A DNA stretch of 64,000 nucleotides from an uncultured Planctomycetota bacterium (GTDB lineage Bacteria; Planctomycetota; Planctomycetia; Isosphaerales; Isosphaeraceae): positions 832,001-896,000 of the forward strand of contig CAWJTV010000011.1 of NCBI GenBank assembly GCA_963845755.1, in the 5' to 3' direction. Shown here piece after piece: positions 3,392 through 22,121 of the stretch. How positions within the stretch are numbered: the stretch's first letter is position 1; each line of letters begins with the position of its first letter. The translations under genes and the position numbers were made by a program. The notes under the pieces are model-generated. The model saw only the letters and a program-made list of their open reading frames with translations, had not been told where the DNA came from and ran no database searches.

Positions 3392-4147
3392 GATCGAGTC
3401 TCCTCGAGGATGGATCATCGGCCACTTCCTCATGGGATCCATGATAGCCGAGATCGCATCCGGAGTCGAAGCCGGGCCGCGCCTTCATTCTTTCCGATCT
3501 TTCGAATGACTGAAGACCTTCAATCGCGTCGCGAGTTGGCAGTAGGGCCGATCGTAGGTCAGGCAGTTGACCTTCCGGCTCGCGACGATGGTCTGCTCGC
3601 TCCGCCAGGTCAACCGATCGCGGAGCGGGGCCTGCTCGAGGAAGCGGTCCCGACCGATGACCAGCAGCGCGACGAATTGGATGGACGGCACTCCGAACCG
3701 CGTGGTGTACGCGGTCGTGCCCCTCTGGTTGTCGAGCCACAAGATCCAGTCGATGATCTGGCTGAACCCGCGCTCGAAACGAGCCGACCAGCCGGGGGTG
3801 GCCTTGGACGACTTCTTGAAGCTGCTGGTCTCGGTCGCATCTTCGAATTCGACGAAGCAATACTCGTGATTCTGGGAATCCCCGATCACTAGGTCGGCCT
3901 TGTGGTCGCCGAAGATGTCGAACTCGAAGGCGATCCGGTCCGTGTGGGCGATCATGTTGTTGCAGGTTCCGATGAGATCTTCTCGAGTGAACCGCGATCG
4001 GCCGTCCAGGTGCCATAGAGGGGTGCGGCATCGAGGCGCAACGCCTTCGTGGACCTCCCAGGGATTGTCTTCCGGCCGTTCGGCCGCGAAGACGATCGTG
4101 TTGAGCGGTTCGATAGTGATGGCGTAAAGCACGATCGCGTCTCCTCG
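3236..4147. repeat. About 170-bp imperfect direct repeat (3236-3406 and 3976-4147)
   Basis: Both copies contain CTCGAGTGAACCGCGATCGGCCGTCCAGGTGCCATAGAGGGGTGCGGCATCGAG and GGACCTCCCAGGGATT. Confidence 0.95.
3485..4132 (-). CDS. Shedu/DUF4263-like PD-(D/E)XK nuclease domain with a chimeric N-terminus
   Basis: DRIAFEFDIFGDHKADLVIGDS..YCFVEFEDA ... RFERGFSQIIDW ... LLVIGR ... CLTYD matches the DUF4263 pattern. GTG start with GAGGAG RBS lies inside a duplicated segment. Confidence 0.75.
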   Translation of the reverse strand: MLYAITIEPLNTIVFAAERPEDNPWEVHEGVAPRCRTPLWHLDGRSRFTREDLIGTCNNMIAHTDRIAFEFDIFGDHKADLVIGDSQNHEYCFVEFEDATETSSFKKSSKATPGWSARFERGFSQIIDWILWLDNQRGTTAYTTRFGVPSIQFVALLVIGRDRFLEQAPLRDRLTWRSEQTIVASRKVNCLTYDRPYCQLATRLKVFSHSKDRKE

Positions 4148-4396
4148 CAGACAGGCGGAAGCCCTGGCTGCGGCCGCGGCCCGCGCCGCCGAACCTCTGG
4201 CCCGCGCTGGAGCCGAGGACTGCATTCGTGAGCGAGAAGCCGAGCTCAAGCGATTGCACAACCGGAAAAATCGATAAAGTCGCACCTATTCGGGCTCGCG
4301 CAATGCCGCGCAATCCACAGCTTATTATTTTTTTCGTTTTTTCTCATCTGCCGCCCCGGTCGAGAGTTGGGGAGGCCGAAGTCGTCATTTTCGCAA

Positions 4397-4743: not shown

Positions 4744-6050
4744 TCAGACCTTCTTGATCGGGCTGGGCGTCCGATCGCCGAGGCCGAAGAGGTGGCGGAC
4801 GGCGTCGAAGAAGGAGTGGGGGTGGTCGTGGTGTGGCTCGGTCATGGCCGAGCGGACGGCCGCCCGCGGGTGGTGGAGGAACTGGTTCTGAAGGCGCATC
4901 ATCGTGTGAGCGATCGCCTCACGGTCGGCCTCGCTGAGGTCCGGCCGGGCGGCGAAGAGCTTGTTCAGCTCGCCGAGGCGGATCGAGTCGTAGCTGCTGC
5001 CCAGCTCCTGGAGGATGTGGCCGGCGTCGTGCTGGTGGCGGAGCAGGGCATAGCAAGTGGTCGTCTCGCGCTCGATGATCGCCAGCGCGGGGTCGATCCC
5101 CTTCTGCCGCTGGAGCCGGTTCTGTTCGGCCTGGGCGCGGAGGTCATCCACGTGATAGAGCATCACTTGATCAAGTTCACCGATCCGCGGGTCGAAGTCG
5201 CGAGGGATGGCGATGTCGAGGATCAGGGCCAGGCGATTCCGCCGCGCGCTGGACCCGCTGATATTGCTCGAGCGTGACCACCGGCTCGTTCGCCGCCGTG
5301 GTGCTGATGACCAGGTCGGCGTCGACCAGGGCCTGGCCCAGCCGCTCGAACGGCACGGCGCGGCCGCCCCAGCGCGCCGCGGCCGATTCGGCCTTCTCCG
5401 CGCTGCGGTTGGTCACCAGGATCGTCCCCGGGTTCAGGCCCTTGAGGTGCTGCAAGGTGGTCTCGCCCATCTTCCCCACGCCGATCACGAGCACCGTCTT
5501 ATCGGCGAACGAGTCGAAGACCTCGCGGGCCACGTTGACCGCGACGCTGGCGACCGACAGCTTCCCCTGGTCCATGCCGGTCTGGGCGCGGACCACCTTG
5601 CCGACCCGCAGCGCCGCCTGGAACACGTTGTGGAAGATCGGGCCGACCGTCTTGCACGCGTCGGCGGCCTTGTACGCGTCGCGCACCTGGCCGAGGATCT
5701 GCCCCTCGCCCAGGACCAGGCTCTCGAGGCTCGCCGCGACCCGGAAGACGTGGCCGACGACCCCCTCATCGTGGTAGCTGACCAGGTGCCCGGCGATGAC
5801 CTCCGCGGCGACCCGGTGGAACTGGACCAGGGCCTCCGTCAGGGCGTTCGACTTCGGGAACCTGCTCCGTGGCGCCGGCGAGGTAGACCTCGACCCGGTT
5901 GCACGTCGACAGGATCACGAGCTCGGTGCCGGGGAACGTTCGCGACAGCCGCTCCAGCCCGGCGGCGCACTGGGGACCGTCGAAGGCGAGCGCCTCGCGG
6001 ACCGAGGCCGGCGACGATCGGTGATCGACTCCCAGGGCCAGCAGTCTCAC
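4744..6050 (-). CDS. hemA: Glutamyl-tRNA reductase (frameshifted in this assembly)
   Basis: LLALGVDHRSSPASVREALAF, VILSTCNRVEVY, SLVLGEGQILGQVRDAY, KLSVASVAV, VLVIGVGKMG, LYHVDDL. Spread over ORFs 5766, 5177 and 4744. Confidence 0.92.
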
Positions 6051-6937
6051 GGCGGCGCCATCCTTCCGGCGGTCTTCGCCGTGCCATGGGCCGTGGGCAA
6101 TCGCAGGGCCTCGACCCCGACCCACGAGAACACCAGGAAACTGAAGGCCACGATCGTCAGGACCATCATGCTCCGGCCGCGCATCGCCGGCCGGAACCGC
6201 GCGTGCAGCAGCCCGGCGAAGACCACCCACATCACCAGCGCGCTCAAGACCTTCGGATCGGTCCAGCGGAGTACGTGCGGGTCGAGGGTCGCGGTGGCAT
6301 GGCCGTCGCCTCGCGTGGCGAGGCTCAACACCACGCCGATCAACAGCCCGAAGGTCAACAGGGGAAACGCCACCGTGATCGCGCCACGGTTGATCCGCTC
6401 CGATTGTTCGAGGCTCGGCAGCGCCAGCCCGGTGCGCGACGGCCGCTTGGCCTTGAGCCGCCGCATCTGCGCCAGGTACATCAGCCCGGCGAGGAACGCC
6501 ACGCAGGTAAACACCCCACCGCCCAGGAGGAAGATCCCGTGCACCGTTCCCCAGAAGCGGACGGTGCCTCCCCAGTCGACCCAGTCGGACTGCCGCGGCG
6601 CAAAACCGCCCGCGCCGACCACCAGGCCCAGCACCAGCGGAAGGACGAACATCCCCACGGCCACCGGTTTGGGCGAGCGGACCATCAGGTATAGCCCGAT
6701 CAGGGCCACGATCCAGGACAGCAGCATCAGCGAGCCGAACGCCGTCGCGACCGGCGCCATCGGGTCCTTCCGCGCCATGCTGGCCAGGAAGGCCGACTGG
6801 ACCAGCCAGCCCAGCGCCATCAACCCGGCCGCCACGTACCAGCGGATGGCGCTGCGGACGAAGAATCGCGCCAGCTCCGCCACCAGGGCCAGCGCATACG
6901 TCCCCGCGAAACAGAGGACCGACAAGCGATCGATCAC
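6047..6937 (-). CDS. ccsA: Cytochrome c biogenesis CcsA/HemX-family membrane protein
   Basis: Multiple TM helices; HGIFLL, LPSLEQSERIN, WTDPKV motifs; overlaps the hemA start. Confidence 0.8.
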   Translation of the reverse strand: MIDRLSVLCFAGTYALALVAELARFFVRSAIRWYVAAGLMALGWLVQSAFLASMARKDPMAPVATAFGSLMLLSWIVALIGLYLMVRSPKPVAVGMFVLPLVLGLVVGAGGFAPRQSDWVDWGGTVRFWGTVHGIFLLGGGVFTCVAFLAGLMYLAQMRRLKAKRPSRTGLALPSLEQSERINRGAITVAFPLLTFGLLIGVVLSLATRGDGHATATLDPHVLRWTDPKVLSALVMWVVFAGLLHARFRPAMRGRSMMVLTIVAFSFLVFSWVGVEALRLPTAHGTAKTAGRMAPP

Positions 6938-7073
6938 GCCGACACTCCCGGCATGCCTACCCCCTCCCGGGGCTTTCCTCCATCCTTCCCCGACCCGGTC
7001 CATTGTAAGCGGGCGCGGCGGGAAAACCCAGACCTCGATGGTGGTGGGCGGTGAGAACGGATCGGTACCGTCT

Positions 7074-8378
7074 TTACTCGCGCATTGCCCCGCGACCCTC
7101 GATCCGACCGAAGGCCGCGAGGCCGAGGCCGAAGGTTGCCAGCAGGGCGTAGAAACCCATCGACGGGGCGCCGAGCATGAAAGCGGGCGAGGCGGTGTGG
7201 AATGGCTTCCCGATCGCGGCCAGCTCCATCATCGTCTTCGGGGGAAGGCCGAAAATGACCAGGACGAGGACCAGGAGGACCGGGATCCGCGGCGACTTCG
7301 CGGCGGCGCGGGCGAGGACGGTGATCGGGATCAAAAGGAGAGGGATCGAATAGTCCCAGGTGACGGGCGAGACCAGGAGCATGGCCGTCACGGCCGAGCC
7401 GTAGGCGAGGTCGCGACCCGCCGGCGTCTTCGCCCGATGAGCGAGTACCACCACGACGGCCGTGACGACCAGGTCGGACACAAGTGTGCCGTAGCGGGCG
7501 ACGGCCGAGCTCGGCCAGAGCGGTGTGATCCGTCCCTGTTCACCGACCGGGTCGAACAGCTTGTACCAGAACCCGGATAGCGACAGGTTGAAGCCGTAGC
7601 TCCGGAACTTTTCCAGGGTGGGCAGGACGATTCGCACATAGTCGTCATAGGTCTCCCAGCCCAGGATGGCGATCGTCGCGAGGTTCAGGGCGGCGAAGGC
7701 CGCGCCGGCGGCGATCAGAGCGCGCCAGCGGCGCCGGGCGGCGAGGTAGATCGCGATGTAGGCGGGAAACAGCTTGATCGCGGCGGCCAGGCCGATCAAT
7801 GCCCCGGCGGCGGCGGGCCGGTCCGATCGGTCGAGTGCCCAGCTCGCCGTCACCAGGAACACCAGGACCATCGTGAGCTGACCCTGCTGGAAATTCCCGT
7901 AGACCGGTAGGCAGAGTGGCAGTAGGGCGGCGACGGGCAAGAACAGGGCCTTGAGCTCGGGCAGCGACGCGGCGACGATCGCCAGGCTTGCCAGGAAAGC
8001 GACCAGCGAGATCATGTTCCAGGCCAGCATCGCATCGGACAGATCGAGCCCTGCCAGGGGTAAGGCGAGCAGCACCGAGGTTGGCGGGTGGGCATTATAC
8101 GCGATGTCGCTCTCTTCGTCCGATTGCGGGCGTCCGAGATACAGGGGGATCGTTCTGGAATGGAGCGTATAAACGGGGAGTCCGCCCCGGTAGTTCTTGG
8201 CCGAGGCCCAATCCTGGAAAAAATCCGGCCTGGATTTCGTGGCAGGCCGAAGGATCCTGGCGTACGCCGGACCGAGCCCGACCCAGGCTCCGGCGGCCAG
8301 GACCAGACACAAGATGCTCGCCGTGCGCCAGAGCCCTGTGGCATCTTGCCCGAAACCCTGTGCCCCAGAACGGCCCAT
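7074..8378 (-). CDS. Glycosyltransferase family 87 (DUF2029) membrane protein
   Basis: PDFFQDWASA, YNAHPPTSVLL, NFQQGQL, AAAIKLFP, SPVTWDY; polytopic. Confidence 0.85.
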   Translation of the reverse strand: MGRSGAQGFGQDATGLWRTASILCLVLAAGAWVGLGPAYARILRPATKSRPDFFQDWASAKNYRGGLPVYTLHSRTIPLYLGRPQSDEESDIAYNAHPPTSVLLALPLAGLDLSDAMLAWNMISLVAFLASLAIVAASLPELKALFLPVAALLPLCLPVYGNFQQGQLTMVLVFLVTASWALDRSDRPAAAGALIGLAAAIKLFPAYIAIYLAARRRWRALIAAGAAFAALNLATIAILGWETYDDYVRIVLPTLEKFRSYGFNLSLSGFWYKLFDPVGEQGRITPLWPSSAVARYGTLVSDLVVTAVVVVLAHRAKTPAGRDLAYGSAVTAMLLVSPVTWDYSIPLLLIPITVLARAAAKSPRIPVLLVLVLVIFGLPPKTMMELAAIGKPFHTASPAFMLGAPSMGFYALLATFGLGLAAFGRIEGRGAMRE

Positions 8379-8486
8379 TGTACCGCCCCTTCGACCCCAC
8401 CACCGGCGCGGTCCGTCCGCGCACTCAACTCTAGGACATGGATGGCGATCCTGCCGTTCGTCCCGGGCGGCTCTGGGACGGGACCT

Positions 8487-9923
8487 TCAGGGACTCACCT
8501 CCAGCGACGTCTCCGCGCGGAGGAGACCGGCGAGCGGGCCGGAGTCGAATTCGACGGTGATCTTGGCCGTTCCTGGGGATTGCGACTGGGGCACTCGGAC
8601 CGAGGCCGGGCAGAAGGTGCCTCAGGCGAAGCCCGAGTGCGCGGTGGCGAGGGTCTGGTCGCCGGCCGTCTGGAGGGCGACCTGGGCGCCCAGGGTCTCC
8701 TGGAGGGCCGGCGAGGCCGGCGCACCGCGATAGCCGATGTTGATCAACAGCCCGTCGCCGGTGTAGAGCAACGGCTGCAAGTCCACGTCCTCGCCGGGCC
8801 TGGCACGCTTCGCCGGGTTGTCGGTCAAGTGGACCTCGAAGCTCGGCGTGCCGATCGGGTCGATCGCGACCGTGCCGTGTTTCTCGACCTTGTACCAGCG
8901 GGGCTCTCCCTTGGCTCCGTTGTCGGAGAAGATGAACGACCATCGCTGGCCGCCCCTGGGATCGTCGAGCGCGATCGTCACCGTGCCCAGGCGGTACTCG
9001 CCGACCGGGACCGTGGCCGGCTCGGTGCCGGAGAGGCCGTAAACCGAGCCATCGCGACCCAGGGCGGTGGCGTGCACCTCGACGGACTCGGCACTCTTGC
9101 TGGCCGCCCCTTTCCAGGCCAATCGCAGCGTGCCGACGCCCACCAGCTTTTCAATGGCGAGTCGGCTGCCCAGCTCGTCCGAGCGGACGACGTATCGCGC
9201 GCCGTCCAGGTTGAGAACCGTGGCGAAGAGGAACTGCTCGGCGGACGGGTCGAAGCGGCCGTCGGCGTTGAGGTCGATCCAGAGCCGGTCCTGGCCGTCG
9301 GACACCAGGCCGTTGCCGTCGCCATCGGCGCGGTGCGCGGCCAGATGGCGGACCGGGGAGTTCGTCGAGCCCGTGCCCGGATCGCCGAGCGCGACCGTCC
9401 CTTCGAGATAGCCGGCCGCGGCGTAGCCGAGCGTTCGGCCGCTCGCGCCGAGCCGGAATACCACGGCGCGGGGGATGGTCCGGGTGATCTCCTTGTCGAC
9501 CATCGCCACCTCGAGCGGCAATCGCCAGACGCGCTCGCGACGCGAGCCGGTCGCCGCGGGCGCGGGGGTGACGCGGTCGCGCTCGTCGATCCGCCGGTTG
9601 CGGTCGGAATCGACGTAGAGGTCGACCTCACCCGGCGCGACCTCGTCGAGCACGACGGTGGCCCGGATCGAGCCCGCGCTGCCGAATCGAATCTGGGCGT
9701 AACGACGGCGCGAGGAATCGCCGCGATAGCGGATCTTCTCGAACAGGTCCTCGGGCTTCTCGCGGCTCAGCACCAGCGCGCGGAACGGGGCGTGCTCGAA
9801 CGGATCGCCCGCCGCCGGGAGCACGAATCGCCAGGCCGGCGCGGTCGACGGTTTGTCGGAACCATCGCCGACCCCGGTCATTGCCAGTGCCAGCACGGTC
9901 AAAGGGACGAGATTCATGAGCAT
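8487..9923 (-). CDS. Secreted hypothetical protein with in-frame UGA at 8622-8624; candidate selenoprotein (478 aa with readthrough, 433 aa without)
   Basis: Signal peptide and EF-hand-like DxDxN/DxNxDG loops. ...HSGFA-TGA-GTFCPASVRVP... stays open for 44 more codons to TGA at 8487. Confidence 0.7.
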
Positions 9924-10046
9924 CGCCTTCTCTGTTGCTCAGAGGTTAATATCGTCATGGTCTCCTCACGAAACGAATCGGTCTCCGCCCGCTCCGCGAC
10001 GCGGTGGAACCGGCGCGAGGGCATTCGCGCCCGCACCAGCTCCATT

Positions 10047-13000
10047 TTACAGATACCGCTGATCCGGCGTCCAAAGAAACAAGAAATATTGATAGATAGA
10101 CCGCCATCGATCGGCGCCGTGGAGGGCCAGGACCTTGGCGACGGAGATCCGCGTCCGGTTCTTGGTCGCGTCGTGATCGGTGCCGGGCGCGGGGTCGTCG
10201 GGGAGGGCCTCGACCTGCTCGACGGCTCGCCGCGGGTTGACCAGGGCCAGCGCGGTCAGGATGTCCGGCGACACGTAGTCGGCGCCGAAGATCGCCTGGC
10301 GCGCCCCGGCCCGGTCCAACTCGGGCTCGAGCAACCGGGCGGCCAGGCCGCGATCGTAGCGGGCGACCATCATCGCGAGCACGGCGGTGGCCCTGGCCAG
10401 TTGAGGCTCATCGGCAGCGGTCTGATCGCCGCGGGCGCGGCGGAGCAAGACGGCGCGGCCGAGGAAGTCCGGCAGGCGGTCCGGTGCGACCTGCTCGACG
10501 ATCGGCAGCAGGCCAATCGCTACGGTCAAGGGGCTGGGCTGGCCGGTCTCGAGGTTCTGCGCGGCCAGGCGCTCCAGCTCGATGAATGCCTCGTCGAGCA
10601 GTCGGACCGCCGCCGACCGGTCCGTCGCGGCGACCGCCTGCGCCATCAGCCCGAAGGCATAGGGACGCAGGGGCAAAGCATCCGGCGAGATTCGCGATTC
10701 GGCGAGCCGACGGGCCCGGGCCAGGTCCTGGGGCGCCATCCTCGTGCAGACGGCGACGATCTCGCGATCCATGTCCGGCCGGAGGCTCGTGTGTTCCAGC
10801 AGGATTCGCTCGGCGACGGCCGGGGAGCGGGCCGCCAGTTTGTGGGCGATCCGGCCGTAGTGCTGCTCGAAGATCCGGCTGCGGTCGCCCGGCTCGGTCT
10901 TCCGGGCGTCCTGTCTCTGCTCCTCAACGATCTTCAGCGCGGCGGGCAAGTCGACCTGCGCCAGCGATACAGCGAGGTAAAGGGGGGCGTGCTCGGAGGC
11001 CTTGTCCCCCCTGGGGATATTCCTGGCCAGTTCCTGACCCTCGCGAAGCACGGCTCGGGCGCGTTCGACGTCTCCCAGGTCGATCAGGCGGTCGGCGATC
11101 TGGCCGGTCACGTTGAATCGGTGCAGCAAGGGAGTGACGGGCTTGCTATGCAAGATCGCCTGATCGAGGAACTGCGCGCTTGCGCTCGGGAGCCAGGTTC
11201 GGTATGACGTCCACGAGCCGGACGTATCCATAAGCCCGCGCGTTCGCGCTCGTAGCGGCCTCGATGATGGCGGTCGCATCGTCGAGGCTCTCACTAGCCA
11301 TGGCTTCCGCCAGCAGGGAGCGAATCTCGTCGACGGAGTCGGGATCGCCGAACTTGGCCTCATCGAGCCACTCCATCGTGGAGTGCGGATCGATGGCGGC
11401 CGCGTCTCTCAGGACCACGTATTTCTGTTCGTCGTCGCCGCGCTCGAGGACCTTCGCCGCCAGGGGCTCGATCAACCGGCGGGCCAGGGCTTGCTCCTCT
11501 TCGATTGGCAGGGCGGATGCGAGCGTCTGGTACGCGACGATGGGAGGCTCGCTGGTGCGCGCGAGCGTGACCTTCACGGGAAGAGGATCGCCGGAGCCGG
11601 GGCTCACGGAACATCCAACAGGCGCAGACCGATATCCCTCCGTTTCGACGAAGATCAGAGCCGGTCCTTCGAGGACGCCGGGGAGCTGGAATCGGCCATC
11701 TTCCGCGGTGAGGGTTTCGGTCGGAATCGGTCCATCTCCCGACTGTCGAATCCGGGCGCCGGCGAGCGGCTGGCCTTGGCGGTTGACGACCCGTCCTTCG
11801 ACGTTCCCCACGCGCCTCAGGGCCAGGACGGGGGGCTTGGTCGATCTCTCGCCCAGTGCGATGGCGGGCGACCGTGCCGTCAGCCGGCCGGGTGCAAATG
11901 CCTCGGCATAATAGGAGGCATTGGCCGCGAATCGCCGTCGCAAACGATAGCGCCCCGCGGCGTCGGTACGCAGCGCGCGCGAGCCGTCTTCGCCCGCGAT
12001 CGGGTCGATGAGGATCACGCGCCTGCTCTTGTCCTTGACCTCGCGCCAGATCCGGACCGACGCGCCGGCAATCGGCCGGCCGGCCGTATCGACAACCCGG
12101 CCAGCAACAGGCGTGGTGTGCTTCGGGTTGATGGTGAGCCTCATGGGCGCTCGGCCGTGGCCTGGGTCTGGATGGTCACCGCGGGCGTGCTGGCGAAGCC
12201 ATCCCACGCCGTGAGGCTCAGCTCGGCGATCGGATCGATGCCGTGGAGTGTGAAGTTGCCGGACCGGTCGGTGCGCGCCAGCGACGCCTGGGACCTTCCC
12301 TCTTCCGAACCCCAGATCGCCTCGACCTCGGCGCCGGCGACGGCCTTGCCGTCCTCGCCGACGACCACGCCCTGAACCTCCACGCCGCGCCGCAGCGCGA
12401 TCGGCGGCATCTCCAGCTCGGCGACCCCTCGCGGAGGCATACTCTGGGGGATCTCCGCCTGGTCGGCCGGCGTGAAGAAGGGAGCGGGGATCCGGATCGG
12501 CCACCCGAACGGCTGGTTCACTTCGCGGAGGATCCGACCGGCGAACCGGCCCGCGGCGTCCGCCATGGTGAATCGGTCGCCGCCGTAGTAGCTGTTCAGG
12601 ATCACCTTCGCGCCCACGATCGGCCGGTTCGTCCCCTTCTCGCGCAGCACTCCGCGGACATTCACCGTCTCGCGCAACGGGATCGCGATCTCGGTCGTCC
12701 GCCCGGCCTTCACGACGACGTGCTTCGGCGCCGGTCCGCGCAACGGAGGACTCCTGGCGGCGTCGAATTCCAGCGCAAGGTCGAGCGTCCCCGCGGCCAT
12801 GGCGGGGATCTCGAATCGTCCTTGGGGGTCGCAGACCACAATGGCCGACCCACGATGCCCGGAGCCGGCATAGCCGCCGACCTGGGTCGCGGCGCGGAGA
12901 GTCACACCTCGGATTGGCTCATTAGCTGGGGCGACCAATCGTCCCACGACCCGGCCGACCGGCGCCAGCGCGAGGTTGATGATTTGATCGGCGTCTTTGC

Positions 13001-13709
13001 GTTTGCTGATATCGGGAATCCGGAATCCCGAATCCGGAATCTCGAATTGGGAATCCGGAATCTCCAGCGTTTGTGTACCAAACCCAGCCGCCTCGACCCG
13101 GAACGAGCCGAGCGCCTCAGGCGACAACCCTGCAAGGGCGGCTCGACCGCTCGCATCGGTCGTGGACGCGAGAGTCTGTCCCAATGGCTCGGGGATGAGC
13201 ACGTCTGCGGCGCGAATGGGAATGACCCGGGCACCGGCCACGGGCTTGCCGTCGGGACCGAAGAGGCGGATCGGCGTTTGGCCGGGCGATCCGAGCTCGA
13301 GTCGGATGGGCGGATCGTCATGCAGGACGACTCGCGGCAGACGATGCGAGGCGACGCGTGTGCCCTCTCCAACGGTCACCGCCCAGACCGTCATCGGCGG
13401 CGGCGTCCGCCGCGCGACGACCTCGGCGGGGATTTCGAGTCCGAACCGGCCGGCGGCGTCGCTACGAGCGTGAACGAGGATCGGCGGCGCTCCCTCGCCC
13501 GGGTCGGTGAAGGACGCGTACCACATCTCTTCCCCGAACTGTCGCCCCTCATCGGCGCGGATCGCGTCGGCCAGCCAGATGTTGACATTCGCAGCCGGCC
13601 GGCCCGAGCCGTCGACGACGGTGCCCACGATCGCGACCGGCTTCGGGTCGGGCGAGGGAGACAGTTGGGCCAGGGCCAGGGTTGCCAGCACCACGGGTAC
13701 GAGTGCCAT
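10047..13709 (-). CDS. Large secreted protein with carboxypeptidase-regulatory-like beta repeats and a helical C-terminus, paralogue 1 (frameshifted)
   Basis: Repeated GxVVDxxGxPxAGAxV ... TDxxGRF units over ORFs 12141, 11146 and 10047; signal peptide. Confidence 0.8.
13014..13062. repeat. Seven tandem heptamers (NNGAATY) inside the CDS
   Basis: GGGAATC CGGAATC CCGAATC CGGAATC TCGAATT GGGAATC CGGAATC. Confidence 0.9.
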
Positions 13710-13748
13710 CAGCGTCGACTCCTGTCACGAGGAGGCGGTCCGTCAACT

Positions 13749-16700
13749 CTACAAATAGCGCTGGTCGGGGGTCCAAAGACCCAGGAAGTATTGGTAGATA
13801 TACCGCCAGCGGTCGGCGCCGTGGAAGGCCAGGACCTTGGCGACGTAGATCCGCGCCTGGTACTTGTTGGCCATGGGGTCGGTGCCGGGGGCGGGGTCTT
13901 CCGGCAGGGCCTCGACCTGCTCGACCGCCCGTTTCGGGTCGATCACCGCCAGGGCCGCCAGGATCCGCCAGGTCACCAGGTCCGTGCCGAAGGCCGTCGC
14001 GTGGCTCCCGATCTTTCGCAGCTCGGGCTCGAGCAACCGGGCGGCCAGCGCGCGATCGTACCGCGCGATCAACATCGCCATCGCGGGCGTGTTGTACGCG
14101 TTGACGTTCCCTTCGCGACCGGTCGGGTCGCCCTGGGGCGGCCGCAGCGCCAGGGTGCGGGCCAGGTACTCCGCCAGCCGGTCCGGCTCGATCGCCTCGA
14201 CGATCGGCAGCAAGCCCCCGCCCTGGTCGGGAACGGGGTAAGTGGCCATTTCCCCGCTGGCGCTGACCTGGTCGAGGGCCGCGTAGGCCGCGTCGATCAG
14301 CTCGAGGGCTGCGGTCTTGTCGGTTGCGGCGATCGCCCGGGCCATCAGGCCCAAGGTATGCGGCCGATAGGCCAGCGCGCCGTGCGAGAGGCGGCGTCCG
14401 GCGATGCGGCGGGCGCGGGCCAGGTCCTTCGCAGCCATCCGGGAGCAGACCGCGGCGACGTACCGATCCGCGGTCTCGTTGATCGGGATCCGCTCCAGCA
14501 CGCGTTCGGCGTCGGCCGGCGATTGAGCCGCCAGCCTGTAGGCGATGGCGCCGAGGGCGCGTTTCGAAGAGAATACTGCGGTCGCTCTTGTCGTTCTTGC
14601 GCGTTGTGCGCGAGATCGTCGAGGAGCTTCAGTGCGGCCGGCAGGTCGAGCCGGGCCAACGCCTCGGCGACCAGGCCGAGGTTGTAACCGTTCTTATTGC
14701 CTTTGGGGGTATTCTGGCCGATCCCGAGCGCCTCGTCGATCACGGCCCGCGCCCGTTCGGTCTCGCCCAGGTCGAGCCAGCGTTCGGCGAGCTGGGCCTC
14801 GATCTGGAGCCGGTCCGTGGACGACTTCATCCCCCGCTCGTTCACGGCCGCTTGCGCGAGGAGTTCCCGGAGTCGGGCCGGCGGCAGGTCGCGCCGGAGC
14901 TCGCAGATCCCCACGTATCCCCAGGCACGGATATCGGCGGTACCGCTGGCCTCGAGCAAGTCCGTCGCCTCGTCGAGATTCTCGCGCGACAGGGCTTCGG
15001 CCAGGTTGACCCGGGCGACCGTGAGATAGTCGGGGTTGACGAACTTGAACGACTCCAGCCGTTCGAGCATGTCGAGCGGGTCGATCTCGGCCGTGTCCTG
15101 GAGAAGGCGCAGTTTCTCCAATTCCGTGCCACACTGGAGGAACGTCTCGACACAAGGTTGAATCAGCCGTCGCGCCAGGACGATCTCCTCTTCAACGGGC
15201 AGGGCCGGCGGGAGGGTGTGATACGCGATGGTAGGCGGTTCGTTCGTCCGCGCGAGCACGACCTGGACCGGTTGGGATCCGTGGTTGACCGGCCGGAAGT
15301 GGGTCCGGAACCCCTCTTTTTCCGCGAAGACCAGCGCAGGTCCCTCACAGACGCCGGAAAGCCGAAACCGGCCGTCCTGGGTACTGAGGGTTTCGGTCGG
15401 CAACGGGCCGTCGCCCGACTGGCGAATCCGGGCGCCGGCGATCGGCTGCCGCTGACGGTCGACGACCCGCCCTTCGACGGTCCCCACGCGACGGAGCACC
15501 AGGACGGAGGTCTTGGTAAATTGTTCGGCGAGGGCGATGGCAGGCGATCGCGCCGTGAGCTGGCCCGGCGCAGACGCCTCGGCGTAATAAGAGGCATGCG
15601 CCGGGAATCGTCGTCGCGAGCGGTAGCGGCCGTCGGCGTCGGTGTGCAGCGCGACGGAGCCATCACCGGCTGCGATCGGCTCGACGACGATCACGGCCCC
15701 GGCCTTGTTCCGGAGCTGGCGCCAGATCCGGACCGATGCGCCGGCGATCGGCTGGCCGGCCGGGTCGACGACCCGGCCGCCGACGGGGGTCGTGTGCTTC
15801 GGGCTGATGGTCAGGGTGACCGGTCGAGCGCCGGGCCGGACCGTGACCTCGGGCGTGCTGGCGAATCCGTCCCAGGCCGTGACGTGGAGATCGGCGAGCG
15901 GATCGACCCCGTGAAGTGTGAACATGCCTGCCTGGTTGGTCCGCCCCAGCGCCGACCAGGGCTGCTCCTCGGCACCGGTCCAGATCGCCTCGACCTCGGC
16001 GCCGGCGACCGGCTTGTTGTCTTCGCCGACGACGGTCCCCTGGACGTCGACGCCGCGCGCCAGCACGAGTGGTGTCAGGTCGAACTCGCGGACCTCGCGC
16101 AGCGGCATTCTCTGCTGCGGGAGGGTGATGTCGGCCGGCTCGAAGAAGGGTGCGGGAATCCGGACCGGCCAGCCGAATGGCTGGGTCATCTCGCGAACGA
16201 TCCGGGCGGTGAACGTTCCCTGGGCGTCGGTCACGGCGAAGTGATCGCCGCCCAATCGCCCATTCAAGACGACCTTCACGCCCGGAACCGGCCGGTTCGA
16301 CTCCCTCTCGCGCACCAGCCCTCGGAGCTTCACCGTCTCGCGGAGCGGGATTGTCATCTCGGTCGATTGTCCGGCCTTGGCGATGAGGTGCCTCGGCGCC
16401 TCGCCGCGCAGCGGCAGGCTCCTGGCGGGGTCGAATTGCAGCTCGAGTGTCAGTACGCCCGCAGCGATGGCGGGGATCTCGAACCGTCCCTGCGCATCAC
16501 ACGTCACGGTCGCCGACCCGCGATGCCCGGAGCCGGCATAGCCGCCGACGAGCGTCGACGCACGAACGGTTACGCCCGTGATTCGCTCATGGCCCGGCGC
16601 GACCAGTTTGCCCGCAATCCGGCCGACCGGAGCCAACCGGACATCGAGGGACGGAGGAACCTCGATCTCCTGTTCGCCGAACCCCTGCGCCTCGACGCGG

Positions 16701-17302
16701 ACGGCTCCCAGCACCTCGGGCGCCAGGCAGGCGATGACCGCCCGACCGTTAGCGTCGGTCGTGGTCTCGAGCGCGTAGGTCAATCGTTTGCGGATCGGCA
16801 GGTCTCCGGCGCGGATCGGAGTGACCCGGGCGCCGGCGACCGGTTTGCCGTCGGGGCTGAGGATGGTCAGATCGGTCCTGGCGGGCGCGCCGAACACGAT
16901 GCGGACCGGAGGATCATTTGCCAGCACGATGCGCGGCAGGCGCAGCCAACCGAGGCGTGCGTCCTTTCCGGCAGCCGCCGCCCAGATCGCCAGGGGCCGC
17001 GGCGACCGTTGCGCGACGGCGTCCGCCGGGACGAGGAACGTGAATCGGCCCGCGGCATCGGCCGAGATGTGGTCGGATACGGGCGTGCGCCCTTCGTTCG
17101 GCCGAGTGGTGGGCGACCACCACAATTCGATGCCGACCTGCCGGCCTTCCTCGGGGCTCATCGCCTCGGCCAGCCAGACGTCGGCAAACGCGACAGGAGA
17201 GCCCGACCGGTCAACCACGATCCCCGTGATCGGAACCGGCTTCGGGTCGGCCGAGGGGGGCAGTTGGACCAGAGCCAGGAAGACCAGGGTCGTGAGTGAC
17301 AT
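13749..17302 (-). CDS. Large secreted protein with carboxypeptidase-regulatory-like repeats, paralogue 2 (frameshifted)
   Basis: Colinear with paralogue 1: shared VGGYAGSGHRGSA, QPFGWP.RIPAPFF and C-terminal GADRWR.IYQYFL.LWTPDQRYL. Confidence 0.8.
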
Positions 17303-17772: not shown

Positions 17773-18192
17773 ATGATCATACTCGACCTGAACACGGGCA
17801 ACGAGCGGCCGATTTACAACCAGATCGCGGACCGAGTGAAGTTCGCGGTGGCCGGAGGTGCCTTGCGTCCCGGCGACATGGTGCCTTCGGTGCGGGAGTT
17901 GTCGAAGCAGTTGGTGGTGAACCCGAACACCGTGGCGCGGGCCTACGGGGACTTGCAGAAAGAGGGCCTGCTGGAAACGGTGCGCGGGATGGGGCTCCAG
18001 GTGGCCGAGGGCGCCGTGGACCGCTGCCGCGTGGCGCGTCGGGAGATGGTGCGCCAGCGATTGCGGCACGTCATCGAGGAGACGTGGCAGAGCCGGATGG
18101 ACCCGACGGAGATCGAGACCATCTTCCGGGAGGAATGGGCCCGCGTGGCCAGCCGGAGCAATGGCGAGGCCGGGATCTCCGCCCGAGCCTAG
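17773..18192 (+). CDS. GntR-family regulator, YtrA subfamily
   Basis: RPIYNQI...LRPGDMVPSVRELSKQLVVNPNTVARAY; short; precedes ABC genes. Confidence 0.92.
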   Translation: MIILDLNTGNERPIYNQIADRVKFAVAGGALRPGDMVPSVRELSKQLVVNPNTVARAYGDLQKEGLLETVRGMGLQVAEGAVDRCRVARREMVRQRLRHVIEETWQSRMDPTEIETIFREEWARVASRSNGEAGISARA

Positions 18193-18267
18193 CGGATTTT
18201 GGGCCTGCTTCTTGATTCCATCCCAAATCCCAAGTCCAGAATTCCCAATCGATCGAGGGGGCGCGGC

Positions 18268-19230
18268 ATGGCACACGCGGGGGCGGTGATCCGGGTCGAT
18301 AGGCTGACCAAGCGGTACCGGAGCCAGACGGCGGTCGATGGGCTGTCGCTGGAAGTGCCCGAGGGCTCGGTCTTCGGCCTGCTGGGTGAGAACGGGGCGG
18401 GAAAGACCACGACGATCCAGACGGTACTGGGGATGATCCAGCCAAGCTCGGGCCGGCTCGAAGTGCTGGGCATCGACCCGTCGCGGCAGGGGTTCGAGGT
18501 GCGTCGGCGCGTGGGTTTCGTGCCCGAGGCTCCGGTGCTCTACGACGGGATGACTGTGGCTCAGATCGGCTGGTTCGCCGCGGCGTTCCACCTGGATGCC
18601 AGGAGGTCCACCGGAGGCTACCGGACGCGGTACGCCGAGCTGACGCGCGATTTCGAGCTGCCGCCGAAACGGAAGATCAAGGAGCTCTCGAAGGGGATGA
18701 GGGCGAAGGTGTCGCTGTCTCTGGCGCTCGCCTCGGACCCGTCGCTGCTGATCCTCGACGAGCCGACCTCCGGGCTCGACGTGCTGGTCCGCCGCGAGTT
18801 CCTCGAGAGCATGGTCGACCTGGCCGGGGCGGGCCGGACCGTGCTGCTGTCCAGCCACCAGATCGGCGAGGTCGAACGGGTCGCCAGCCATGTGGCCTTG
18901 CTTCATCGCGGCAAGCTGATCCTCGCCGAGCCGCTGGACGACCTGAAGGCCCACACCTTCGTGATCTCGGTGATGTTCACCAGCCGCGACCACCCCGAGA
19001 CGCCTCCCGAGGGACGCGGCCTGGAGCTGATCGACGCCTCGGACGCCCCGCGCCAGGCGCGCTGGCTGGTCCGGGCCGCGGACCGCTCGGCGTGCGAAGC
19101 CCTGCGAGCCATGCCGGGTGTCGAGGACCTGAACGTCGAGTCGCCCAGCCTGGAGGAGATCTACATCGGCTACATGCGCGCCCGGCGGCCCGAGCGCCCG
19201 GCGCAGCCGCGGGTCTGGTACGTGGCGTGA
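18268..19230 (+). CDS. ABC transporter ATP-binding protein
   Basis: Walker A GENGAGKTT, signature LSKGM, Walker B LLILDEPTSGLD, H-loop LSSH. Confidence 0.95.
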   Translation: MAHAGAVIRVDRLTKRYRSQTAVDGLSLEVPEGSVFGLLGENGAGKTTTIQTVLGMIQPSSGRLEVLGIDPSRQGFEVRRRVGFVPEAPVLYDGMTVAQIGWFAAAFHLDARRSTGGYRTRYAELTRDFELPPKRKIKELSKGMRAKVSLSLALASDPSLLILDEPTSGLDVLVRREFLESMVDLAGAGRTVLLSSHQIGEVERVASHVALLHRGKLILAEPLDDLKAHTFVISVMFTSRDHPETPPEGRGLELIDASDAPRQARWLVRAADRSACEALRAMPGVEDLNVESPSLEEIYIGYMRARRPERPAQPRVWYVA

Positions 19231-19313
19231 AGGAATATACGAGTGATCGGTCGTAGCGTGGTGTCGAACGTCGCGCAGCGGCGTGAGGCCCACCGAGGAG
19301 CTGGAGCCATCCC

Positions 19314-22121
19314 ATGTATCTGCGTTTTTGGTGGAAGGACGCGCGGCAGTTCTGGCCGATCTGGGTCTTCCTGATCCTGGCTGCGGCCGGCACGCAGGGG
19401 CTCTTGCTGTCTTACGGGGATCCGAGTGTGCGGAACTTCGGCGTCCTGGGTTTCGTGGCCTTGTGCTGGGCGACCCTCTATGCGTGCGCGGTCGGTTCGG
19501 CCGCGTTCGCCGGGGAGCGCGAGACCGGCACGCTACGATTCCTCGACATCCTCCCAGCTTCGCGCGGGGTCGTCTGGACGAGCAAGGTGTCGTTCGCCGC
19601 CTTCACGACCCTGGGCCTGACGGCGACCCTGCTGGCGATCGCGGCGCTGGGTAGCGACGATTGGGACTTGCCAGGCCAAATCCACGCATACCCGGATGCG
19701 CTCCCGTTCGTCGGCGTTCTGGTGCAGGCGCTAGCTCTCGGGCTGTTTTGCTCATCGATCATGAAAAACGCCATCATAGCGGCGATCTCGACGGTGGGCC
19801 TCACGGCCGTCGGTTGGACAGTCCTGATGGCGTCTTTTAGCCAAAACGGTGGAGGATTCAGCCAGGCGACGGACGAGATCTTCGGCGGGCAGCTCAAGAT
19901 CGCATCGGCCGCGATCGTCGCCTCGCTCATCGCGTTCACCTGGGCGCGGCGCAACCGTCGGGCGCCGATCCGACTGCGGCTCCAATCGCCGATCGTGGTG
20001 ACGTCGAGCGGCGCCGGGCGCGGGTCTCCTGGCCCTGCCCTCCGGCCGACCGACGGTCTCCAGCAGCCGAGGAAGGGTCCGCCTGTGGAGACCCTGGGTC
20101 AACTCGTCGTCGCCGACACTCCGGGTGCCCGGAGACCCGCGCCGATCGCGGCCCTCACCTGGTCGGCCGACCAGCCACGGCCTCGATCATGGCTCACGGA
20201 AATGCGATACTTGATCTGGCAGACCATGCAAGAAGGGCGCGCGACCTGGTATCTCCTGCTGGTGATCGGGCTGATCATCCCGTTGAGCGTGGCGACCCTC
20301 GGGGACATGCGAAACCTGTCCTTCGCGATACCCTGGAACGCGCTGATCGCCCTGGTGGCAGGAGTCAGCGTCTTCGGGCTGGAGAACCGGGCGCGGACTT
20401 ATCGATTCCTCGTCCACCACGGGGCGCGACCGGGGTCCGTCTGGCTGGCGAAGCTGCTGACCTGGTGCTTCGGGCTGGCGATCATCTGGGTGCCGCTGGT
20501 GATGATGCACGCGGGCTCGCCCACGATATCCCCCGACTCACGAGAGGACTTGATCTGGCTCGCCTTGTGCCTTCCGACAGGCTTCGCCGTGGCGCAGTTC
20601 TGTGGGATGGCAATCTCGCGCGGGATCACAGCCTGGGCGATTGCCCTGGTGGTCTCGATCGGATTAGGACTCGCCCAGGTCGAGATGGTCCGAGGGATGA
20701 TGTTGCCGATCTGGGGCCTGGCGGCGATACCCCTGACGCTGCTGGCGGCCACCTGGGCCTGGCGCAGGGACTGGCTTCTGGACCGCCCGGCGCCGGGGCG
20801 CTATGTCCGGCTCGGATTGATACTGGCCACGACCGTGGGGGCGCTGCTGGGCGGATACTCCGGTGTGCGGGTCTGGAGCATTCCCGATGCCGGGCCGATC
20901 GCCGAACCGACTGTCTGGACCGCCTTAGACATTCTTCCGCCCAGCCGCAATGCGGCCGAGCTCTATCGCGAGGCGGCAGGCAAGCTGAGCAAGAGCCGGC
21001 TAGGGAATATCGTGGACTATGCCATGGAACGGGAGGCACTCGCCCTGACCCGCCAGGCGGCGGCCCGGCCGGACTGCCGGTTCGCACCAACCGAGCAGCT
21101 CACCTTGGTGAATGGACCGAACCTGCCGCCGATGAACGAGCTCGCCGGATTGATGATAATCGACGCGCGCAATCGCATCGACAAGAAAGACCTCTCCGGT
21201 GCCTGGGACGACATCGTGGTGCTGCTCCGCATGGCCCGGCACGTCAGCGAGGGAGCGACGATCACCCACGGCAAGAAGGCCCTCGCGATCGAGAAGGAGG
21301 CGCTGGACCTCGCGATCGACTGGGCCACGATGGAGGGTCAGACGCCCGATCGGCTCCACGCGGCGATCGCGGCTTACCGGGACTGGATCGGGCTGACCCC
21401 GGCGGTGGAGGTCGCCCGGGCCGAGGGGATCCTCCTCGAACGGACGATCGATCTTCCCATCGACGACCTCAAGGGATTGCTGCTGGAGACCATTGTCGGT
21501 GCCACGTCGTTGAGCCAGGGCAAGGTCCCGATCGGGGCAGCCCTGCGGGTCGGCCTGATCACTACGCCCTGGGAGCGCGCCCGTGCTCGGCGCGTCAACC
21601 GCCGATATGTCGCCGACCTCATCCAGATGGCGGCTCTCGAACCGTGGCAATCGCGGCCATCGCCCGGGCCTGGAGACCCGATCTTCTACGATCTGGAGAG
21701 CACCCCGCTGGCGAAATTGCTGGAAGCGAGCTTTGATTCCTATCTCCTTGCGGAGCACAACAACGAGGTTGCGCGACGGGCGATCGTGCAAGTGATGGCG
21801 ATCCGGGCCTGGCAGCTCAAACACGGTGGCCAATTCCCCGATCGCCTCGAAGCGATCGTCCCCGACGATCTGCCCAGCCTTCCCGTCGACCCGTACTCGG
21901 GCAAGCCATTCGGTTATCTCGCATATGCCCGGAATCCGTCTTTGGTCCAGCAGACGCTCTTGGCCGCGGGGAAGCTCGTCTCCGACCCGATTCCGCCAGA
22001 GACTCGGGTGCTCTTCAGCGCCGGGCTCAATCGAGCAGATGACGTCAATGTGGCCACCACCTCCAGCTACCGTACTGACGATATCCTCTTCCCGATCCCA
22101 CCAGTCGGTGCGCCTCGCTGA
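19314..22121 (+). CDS. ABC-2-type permease with two membrane modules and a large C-terminal soluble domain
   Basis: FWWKDARQ...FAGERETGTLRFLDILP and a second module IWQTMQE...FGLENRARTYRFL; C-terminal FPDRLEAIVPDDLPSLPVDPYSGKPFGY. Confidence 0.8.
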   Translation: MYLRFWWKDARQFWPIWVFLILAAAGTQGLLLSYGDPSVRNFGVLGFVALCWATLYACAVGSAAFAGERETGTLRFLDILPASRGVVWTSKVSFAAFTTLGLTATLLAIAALGSDDWDLPGQIHAYPDALPFVGVLVQALALGLFCSSIMKNAIIAAISTVGLTAVGWTVLMASFSQNGGGFSQATDEIFGGQLKIASAAIVASLIAFTWARRNRRAPIRLRLQSPIVVTSSGAGRGSPGPALRPTDGLQQPRKGPPVETLGQLVVADTPGARRPAPIAALTWSADQPRPRSWLTEMRYLIWQTMQEGRATWYLLLVIGLIIPLSVATLGDMRNLSFAIPWNALIALVAGVSVFGLENRARTYRFLVHHGARPGSVWLAKLLTWCFGLAIIWVPLVMMHAGSPTISPDSREDLIWLALCLPTGFAVAQFCGMAISRGITAWAIALVVSIGLGLAQVEMVRGMMLPIWGLAAIPLTLLAATWAWRRDWLLDRPAPGRYVRLGLILATTVGALLGGYSGVRVWSIPDAGPIAEPTVWTALDILPPSRNAAELYREAAGKLSKSRLGNIVDYAMEREALALTRQAAARPDCRFAPTEQLTLVNGPNLPPMNELAGLMIIDARNRIDKKDLSGAWDDIVVLLRMARHVSEGATITHGKKALAIEKEALDLAIDWATMEGQTPDRLHAAIAAYRDWIGLTPAVEVARAEGILLERTIDLPIDDLKGLLLETIVGATSLSQGKVPIGAALRVGLITTPWERARARRVNRRYVADLIQMAALEPWQSRPSPGPGDPIFYDLESTPLAKLLEASFDSYLLAEHNNEVARRAIVQVMAIRAWQLKHGGQFPDRLEAIVPDDLPSLPVDPYSGKPFGYLAYARNPSLVQQTLLAAGKLVSDPIPPETRVLFSAGLNRADDVNVATTSSYRTDDILFPIPPVGAPR

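Follow-up and report, generated by a model that had tools for sequence, protein, structure and literature searches.

A candidate family of probably exported, all-beta selenoproteins with a conserved in-frame UGA in Isosphaeraceae and other Planctomycetota

The analyzed stretch of DNA (the window) comprises 64,000 nucleotides of an uncultured Planctomycetota bacterium of the family Isosphaeraceae (assembly GCA_963845755.1, contig CAWJTV010000011.1, positions 832,001 to 896,000). Its minus strand contains an annotated open reading frame (ORF) of 433 aa (8622..9923) with the C-terminus ...ATAHSGFA, which stops at TGA 8622-8624. The same frame stays open for 44 codons after this TGA, namely, GTFCPASVRVPQSQSPGTAKITVEFDSGPLAGLLRAETSLEVSP, and ends at a second TGA, 8487-8489. 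Judging from the sequence and its homologues, the first UGA is very probably a selenocysteine (Sec) codon in a selenoprotein of 478 residues, and the annotation almost certainly loses 45 residues of this protein, Sec434 and the 44-codon tail. The features of the gene are as follows.

8490..9923, minus strand: full coding sequence of the predicted selenoprotein, 478 codons including that of Sec434; the annotation ends at codon 433
9864..9923, minus strand: hydrophobic N-terminal segment, approximately residues 1-20, as read from the sequence MLMNLVPLTVLALAMTGVG
8622..8624, minus strand: putative Sec codon UGA, residue 434; TGA column in 30/30 loci and in distant loci
8490..8621, minus strand: 44-codon tail left out by the annotation; last three strands of the C-terminal beta-sandwich, with a coding-like codon pattern
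8610..8612, minus strand: codon of Cys438, the partner of Sec434 in U-G-T-F-C; invariant in alignments A2 and A5
8590..8607, minus strand: predicted selenocysteine insertion sequence (SECIS) hairpin at +15..+32 after the UGA; RNAalifold consensus with a 6-bp stem, bulged U29 and a 5-nt loop
8597..8601, minus strand: apical loop G-G-U-C-C at +21..+25; alignment columns 40-41 (G22, U23) invariant in 38/38 sequences
8487..8489, minus strand: true stop TGA; homologues stop 41-57 codons after Sec and are unalignable beyond

The extent of 478 codons is based on translation with TGA read as U, on homologues that align to residues 475-478 through one TGA, and on AlphaFold modeling. A preliminary description of this DNA, made from the sequence alone and without indication of the strand, had noted the stop of the 433-aa ORF followed by a 44-codon continuation rich in G+C at third codon positions (GC3), a Cys four residues past the UGA with none in the preceding 433 aa, and a readthrough requiring no indel; all of this was found to be correct. 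Cys438 is the only Cys of the protein, residues 1-433 containing none. The tail has a GC3 of 0.84, compared with 0.90 for the body of the gene; beyond the second stop, the value for this frame is 0.58. However, at least 44 open codons follow the stop in 4 of the 18 long high-GC3 frames of the window, whose G+C content is 64.6%. The open tail alone is within chance; its significance comes from comparative data only. It also suits an alternative explanation, that the TGA is a genuine stop and the conservation downstream reflects an independent small ORF or an intergenic regulatory RNA. Public annotations all end the protein at this point, and a small ORF might in principle begin with the GTG of codon 444.

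A word-indexed database search found 459 relatives. Among the matches listed, 117 of the 119 homologues (the window's own protein excluded) are annotated to end with ...SGFx directly before the TGA, in line with the expectation that gene callers would truncate the protein; the other two, P0028 and P0064, run on in another frame. When genomes were read through stops, the gene was detected in 34 of the 121 genomes of the Isosphaeraceae family, representing 16 of its 53 genera. All 46 genome matches spanning residue 434 carry an in-frame TGA (exactly one in 42 matches, more in 4), and for most of them the alignment extends to residues 475-478, at identities as low as 49%. Thirty loci, the window's own and 29 others, were examined directly, and in 30/30 the TGA occupies one shared alignment column. 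The surrounding motif in these loci is ...SGF-x-U-G-[T/G/S]-[F/I]-C-x-A-S-V-R-[V/A]-P...F-x-[S/T]-G-P-[L/M]-x-G. The tail residues G435, C438, A440, S441, V442, R443, P445, F459, G462, P463, L464 and G466 are invariant in 21 sequences. Moreover, the TGA is kept in the distant loci L055, L056, L065-L067, L072, L075, L078 and L079.

In the 30 loci, the tails are 41-57 codons long and their final stop is TGA, TAA or TAG, whereas the column of residue 434 never contains TAA or TAG, which speaks against a genuine stop there. Pairwise differences at the three codon positions amount to 0.43/0.31/0.53 within the tail (codons +12..+40) and to 0.42/0.41/0.51 within the 40 codons that precede Sec; past the true stop they reach 0.74/0.73/0.74, i.e., complete divergence. 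This contrast with the flat values past the stop indicates that the tail is under protein-level selection in frame, with a pattern equal to that of the gene body. In addition, codons +1 to +9 (G-T-F-C...) are conserved in frame ahead of any possible start of a small ORF, which such an ORF or a regulatory RNA leaves unaccounted for.

The same comparison bears on a further explanation, namely, that the TGA results from an error of assembly or sequencing or that the gene has recently become a pseudogene. The assembly does contain frame breaks elsewhere, in hemA, in the gene upstream of the predicted selenoprotein gene and in selB. However, the same TGA recurs in the loci of 29 other genomes, in families of the phylum beyond the Isosphaeraceae and in contigs from other sequencing runs, and no indel is involved. 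Since the TGA is conserved across genomes, this explanation is refuted in practice and its probability is negligible. Regarding the reads at 8622, which the preliminary description had proposed to inspect, soil-metagenome contigs from three runs show 8622-8624 unchanged, two of them without any difference over 151 and 195 bases; some of these contigs may derive from the source sample of the assembly itself, and parts of the gene are uncovered. The sequencing runs with matches to the gene provided only soil-metagenome DNA contigs of small share, and no RNA run was listed. Contigs of two soil-metagenome runs (X3 record 6 and X5 record 9) match only about 50 bases around the UGA and hairpin, 8587-8637, and differ from the window on both flanks, as expected of other family members. 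Several genomes (e.g., G087, G062, G043, G001 and G029) contain two paralogous copies of the gene, each with its own TGA, and a degraded copy with three TGA and one TAG is located in G030:C6.

The breadth of the family was assessed by an exhaustive profile search in a library of 1.84 billion cluster representatives, which gave 763 matches at E ≤ 1e-3 and 287 at E ≤ 1e-30, the 763 being counted as clusters at 50% identity. Of the best 150 of these 763, 120 end with ..G[F/Y]x, i.e., are cut at the Sec column, three are continuous proteins with Cys at this column, and 27 are fragments or have other ends. Cys forms are represented by P0152 (..SSFA-C-GTFC-KTAVRVP..FDSGPLAG), P0176 (..TSFG-C-GCLC..) and P0228 (..SHYA-C-GALC..), the latter noted jointly with P0273 as a Cys form. 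In the nucleotide sequences, TGC (Cys) occupies the Sec column in locus L073 of a metagenome-assembled genome (MAG) of Planctomycetaceae. No sense residue other than Cys, and thus neither Trp nor Arg, was observed in this column, and the homologues retain TGA or, rarely, Cys together with the conserved tail, as the preliminary description had anticipated for a selenoprotein. That the Cys forms are continuous single proteins also argues against a genuine stop followed by a separate element.

Among 400 further genomes sampled from the phylum, three more full-length copies with one TGA each were present, in three other families. The motif was confirmed in two of these, L055 and L056; the motif pattern failed to resolve the third, L057 (G328). 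Named records of the Sec form include MAGs of Planctomycetaceae, Pirellulaceae, Planctomycetales and Isosphaerales and Aquisphaera insulae; cultured relatives that carry the gene include Aquisphaera giovannonii and A. insulae. A scan of metagenomes with the family alignment found at least three loci, one search pattern carrying Cys where the DNA has TGA. In the ESM Atlas, the Cys form P0152 matched only "hypothetical protein" clusters of Planctomycetota, and a cluster look-up gave no informative names for the Cys forms.

According to AlphaFold2 modeling with 90 sequences, the read-through protein is all-beta (predicted local distance difference test, pLDDT, 89.1; predicted template modeling score, pTM, 0.83), with disorder limited to residues 1-23 (pLDDT < 50). 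Its architecture is a chain of Ig/macroglobulin-like sandwiches with DxDxDG-type loops. The tail contributes strands E440-443, E451-460 and E467-476, modeled at pLDDT 91-98, which are the final three strands of the last beta-sandwich. This sandwich needs the tail, as would not be expected if the chain genuinely ended at the TGA, and a true stop at residue 434 is considered extremely improbable. Under Sec decoding, Sec434 would be located directly after one strand and Cys438 just before the next, which places the pair on a hairpin turn in the model of the C-terminal domain folded alone (pLDDT 83).

The best superposition of this domain was obtained with the alpha-2-macroglobulin (A2M) of Salmonella (4u48_A; Z 11.1, root-mean-square deviation 2.2 over 97 residues). 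Foldseek additionally indicated similarity with the MG2 domain of human A2M, 2p9r (E 1.2e-4, TM 0.59/0.74). The Cys form P0152 has a sub-threshold match to Pfam MG2 (E 3e-5, 24.7 bits, cut-off 32.8), and the window protein has none; for the read-through protein, Pfam gave only a sub-threshold GEVED match. For the whole model, Foldseek returned only generic multi-Ig matches with TM < 0.25, and a search of the PDB with the family sequence profile gave nothing meaningful (best E 0.15). The beta-rich, non-thioredoxin context suggested in the preliminary description agrees with the all-beta model and the lack of a thioredoxin-like fold in it. The N-terminus is hydrophobic and signal-like; it is probably a signal peptide or membrane anchor, and for this reason the protein is probably exported to the periplasm or the cell surface.

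The RNA downstream of the UGA was analyzed in RNAalifold using 30 aligned 90-nt segments, and pairing was later counted over 38 distinct Sec-form sequences. The consensus hairpin at +15..+32 has the stem pairs G15-C32, G16-C31, C17-G30, C18-G28, U19-A27 and C20-G26. All 228 of the 228 stem cells are standard pairs, and five of the six pairs never vary; L055 has U19-G27. Codons that overlap the hairpin show constraint at synonymous sites. The conserved columns whose residues are 4- to 6-fold degenerate number 108, and synonymous variation is entirely lacking at just three of them, A440 (GCC, 21/21), R443 (CGA, 21/21) and V444 (GTG, 19/19), all of which fall within the stem. CGA is used at other Arg columns by at most 5 of the 21 sequences. 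C, U and G replace one another freely at the wobble position of V442, which lies in the loop. The third base of codon 439 is G15, and it is G throughout although residue 439 itself is variable. In a Pirellulaceae MAG with a G+C content of 48%, GGCCUCAGUUCGAGUGCC is kept. In the Cys form L073, 2 of the 7 model pairs are left and the hairpin is lost.

The presence of a hairpin after the UGA thus corresponds to what the preliminary description had proposed, whereas the pairing drawn there, GGCAC (+1..+5) with GUGCC (+28..+32) enclosing an upper CGG/CCG stem, is kept less well. This pairing is the one part of that interpretation to be corrected; its other points were supported by the checks suggested there. 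That pairing can be drawn, yet neither RNAalifold nor single-sequence RNAfold predicts it. In 30 sequences, 19 of its 240 cells are unpaired, compared with 2 of 210 for the +15..+32 hairpin, and the GUGCC 3' arm pairs with GGCC at +15..+18 rather than with GGCAC at +1..+5.

Two FdhA-type molybdopterin genes of the same genome, each with an in-frame TGA in U-H, provide a comparison.

G000:C47:113085-113429: FdhA-type gene that shares its contig with selA, at a distance of about 70 kb
G000:C9:260144-261037: second FdhA-type gene

Both contain GGUCU at +19..+23 after the UGA. In the RNAfold prediction for the C47 gene, this motif lies in the loop, 5 nt long, of a hairpin; such a loop in the C9 gene is our own reading of the sequence and differs from the computed fold. 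In fdhF of E. coli, the loop is GGUC with an essential G and U, and there is a bulged U. The gene in the window resembles such bacterial SelB/SECIS genes (FdhA/FdhF) in its in-frame UGA, after which a short hairpin, rich in G+C and with G-U in the loop, lies within the coding sequence. It differs from the FdhA-type genes in the start of the loop (+21 versus +19) and in the bulge on the 3' arm, and the encoded protein, unlike FdhA, is all-beta, has no molybdopterin domain and carries Sec outside a U-H-x-P motif.

The genome contains the Sec machinery (selA, selB, selC and selD) that the preliminary description had named as a prerequisite. The tRNA-Sec was identified by Rfam (78.4 bits) and called SeC(tca) by ARAGORN, and matches of 406 bits, 376 bits and 298 bits were obtained for selA, selD and selB, respectively. 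A strong SelA match is present in 33 of the 34 gene-bearing genomes among the 121 of the family, these counts being taken over genomes related to one another.

Several findings weigh against Sec decoding. The selB gene lies in three pieces in different frames (G000:C29:294598-296489); this is probably an assembly indel error of the kind seen elsewhere in the assembly, and it is possible that selB is genuinely broken. One carrier, G064 (83% complete, 1190 contigs), has only a weak SelA-like match. Strong SelA also occurs in 55 of the 87 genomes without the gene, 32 of the 87 lacking a strong match, so the co-occurrence discriminates weakly. With five of its six pairs fixed, the stem shows almost no covariation. 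The sole change on both sides concerns the pair 21-25, C21-G25 in L056 and G21-C25 in most sequences, and this change was equalled by 101 of 500 shuffles. Five of 34 sequences leave positions 21 and 25 unpaired, and L075 has A·C there, so these positions may be part of the loop rather than of the stem; position 21, which is G, C or A across sequences, probably is. Covariation tests on the hairpin showed nothing beyond shuffles because the stem hardly varies. Since compensatory change is essentially lacking, the case for the hairpin is based on conservation, i.e., constraint at the RNA level. The loop is also 2 nt further from the UGA than in both FdhA-type genes. A Rfam scan of 8380-8760 at E ≤ 10 found no SECIS family; the scan serves short bacterial SECIS elements within ORFs poorly, and its one result was a chance-level sRNA match on the plus strand.

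These points leave room for a programmed or leaky readthrough of the UGA without selenium, by a near-cognate tRNA (Trp, Cys or Arg), with the hairpin acting only as a stimulator. Any mechanism of readthrough would explain a coding and conserved tail, and a hairpin that lacks real covariation and matches no Rfam SECIS model suits this explanation. It is considered very improbable, as the loop GGUCC resembles GGUCU of the two FdhA-type genes, strong SelA accompanies nearly all carriers, and the sole sense residue at the column is Cys, the classic Sec/Cys exchange, with a Cys form devoid of the hairpin.

Under Sec decoding, the mechanism would be the ordinary bacterial one. As in established bacterial Sec biology, the UGA 8622-8624 would be read as Sec by SelB with Sec-tRNA(Sec), SelB being recruited by the SECIS hairpin at +15..+32 (8590-8607) within the coding sequence. 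Translation would then continue for 44 codons to the real stop 8487-8489. In the product, the turn that carries Sec434 and Cys438 would join two strands of the final, MG2-like domain. A scan of 8300-10200 showed one promoter-like site, 10073-10044 on the minus strand, and found no terminator.

Given Sec decoding, three roles are considered for the pair Sec434 and Cys438. A reversible selenenylsulfide that serves as an extracytoplasmic redox or nucleophilic center is the tentatively favored one, at somewhat below even chances. Binding of a soft metal or metalloid by the pair is rather unlikely, and a purely structural bond is more doubtful still. The fold matches are generic beta-sandwiches, and since the MG2-like fold is a common beta-sandwich, a shared function need not follow from it. 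The C-terminal domain that bears Sec superposes best on macroglobulin domains, the kind present in A2M and complement C3/C5, whereas no thioester or other A2M domains were detected and the protein has 478 aa, compared with approximately 1500 for A2M.

The protein was also compared with known selenoproteins. DUF1573 is a small beta-sandwich domain that is common in Planctomycetes. With its UGC motif, DUF1573 (PF07610) is catalogued as a predicted selenoprotein that is not thioredoxin-like in the review PMC13188914; PF07610 has no match at E ≤ 1 to the window protein or the Cys forms, and the motif here is U-G-T-F-C. Thioredoxin-fold selenoproteins with UxxC/CxxU motifs (Trx, Grx, DsbA/DsbG-like and thiol:disulfide interchange proteins) are similar in that Sec is near Cys and Cys homologues exist, and several of them are exported; for these, a redox role is the default expectation according to the same review (PMC13188914). 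The present protein differs from them in the UxxxC spacing, the all-beta model and the lack of a thioredoxin-type match in Pfam or NCBIfam. In Table 1 of that review (PMC13188914), TsoA (LULAxC, NF045695) has the same U-x-x-x-C spacing, and TsoX (HSGNPxU, NF045809) has an H-S-G start superficially like H-S-G-F-A-U here; compared by model and motif alone, the TsoA and TsoX models miss the window protein and the Cys forms at E ≤ 1.

The same Table 1 of the 2026 review (PMC13188914) gives 119 prokaryotic selenoprotein families with model identifiers; the comparison with these models covered all but the few families defined by cd or PTHR identifiers and yielded no match. The word "Planctomyc" is absent from PMC13188914. 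In the June 2026 release of NCBIfam, no family matched the window protein and two Cys forms at E ≤ 1. According to PMC4807772, Isosphaera pallida has Sec genes; the selenoproteins reported there were found by homology to known ones. A literature search for selenocysteine or selenoprotein with the genera of Isosphaeraceae found nothing relevant. Apparently, the family is undescribed so far, the comparison having been made outside the BSepDB family table and Haft and Tolstoy 2025.

The neighboring genes were examined on both sides of the predicted selenoprotein gene. The gene directly upstream encodes a giant protein.

10047..13715, minus strand: conserved upstream partner gene of approximately 1200 aa with CarboxypepD_reg beta-sandwich repeats and a C-terminal helical domain; two frame changes
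13752-17302, minus strand: tandem paralogue of the partner gene, with a frame change near 14595

The partner gene was mapped by tblastn of intact orthologues of 1233 aa and 1208 aa, which gave the frames -1, -3 and -1; its helical C-terminal domain has no family match. Of the 29 other loci, 26 have the C-terminal part of the partner protein encoded next to the selenoprotein gene. Among eight wider regions, four contain a single large ORF of the partner family (1174-1548 aa) that ends beside the selenoprotein gene, and a fifth has shorter ORFs of this family flanking it. The selenoprotein probably works with this giant protein, to judge from the gene order. In one locus (L087:9547-14193, minus strand), the partner frame opens with regions 2 and 4 of an ECF sigma factor (Pfam E 1e-10 to 1e-11), either because the two are fused or because a neighboring sigma gene happens to share the frame. 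This arrangement hints that the partner protein may be anti-sigma-like. On the downstream side, the GT87 gene (7074-8378) was considered as a partner and rejected, as only two of the 29 other loci have it as a neighbor of the selenoprotein gene (L053 and, weakly, L029).

Other genes of the window are as follows.

3485-4285, minus strand: candidate gene for defence against phages, an ORF of 266 aa that carries the Shedu SduA C-terminal domain (Pfam E 6e-21)
4744-5686, minus strand: split hemA (glutamyl-tRNA reductase), with GlutR_N/Shikimate_DH in 5177-5686 and GlutR_dimer in 4744-5166; the split looks like an assembly frame break
6047-7003: cytochrome c assembly-type gene, after hemA
17773-22121, plus strand: in a row, a GntR-type regulator, an ABC ATPase and an ABC-2 membrane protein of 935 aa

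If Sec decoding is true, the Planctomycetota entries of this family (763 clusters) mostly lack their last 41-57 residues, which are three strands of the final domain together with the only conserved Sec/Cys pair. The near-invariant 18-nt hairpin would be a simple gene-finding pattern for the phylum. A class of non-thioredoxin, all-beta, probably extracytoplasmic selenoproteins would be added to those known. Sec rather than Cys as the usual state of a family is unusual, and this suggests that selenium is needed for the chemistry. Our best guess at a function would be a selenium-sulfur site for redox reactions or capture, located in the cell envelope and acting in partnership with the conserved giant gene upstream. 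The protein in the window may, with less than even confidence, be the founding example of a very large exported family dominated by Sec, which carries Sec on a beta-hairpin turn (U-x-x-x-C) of a macroglobulin-like sandwich instead of a thioredoxin fold and forms an envelope redox or capture module with the upstream protein. If so, this module could be one of the chief reasons for the retention of the Sec machinery in aerobic soil Planctomycetota.

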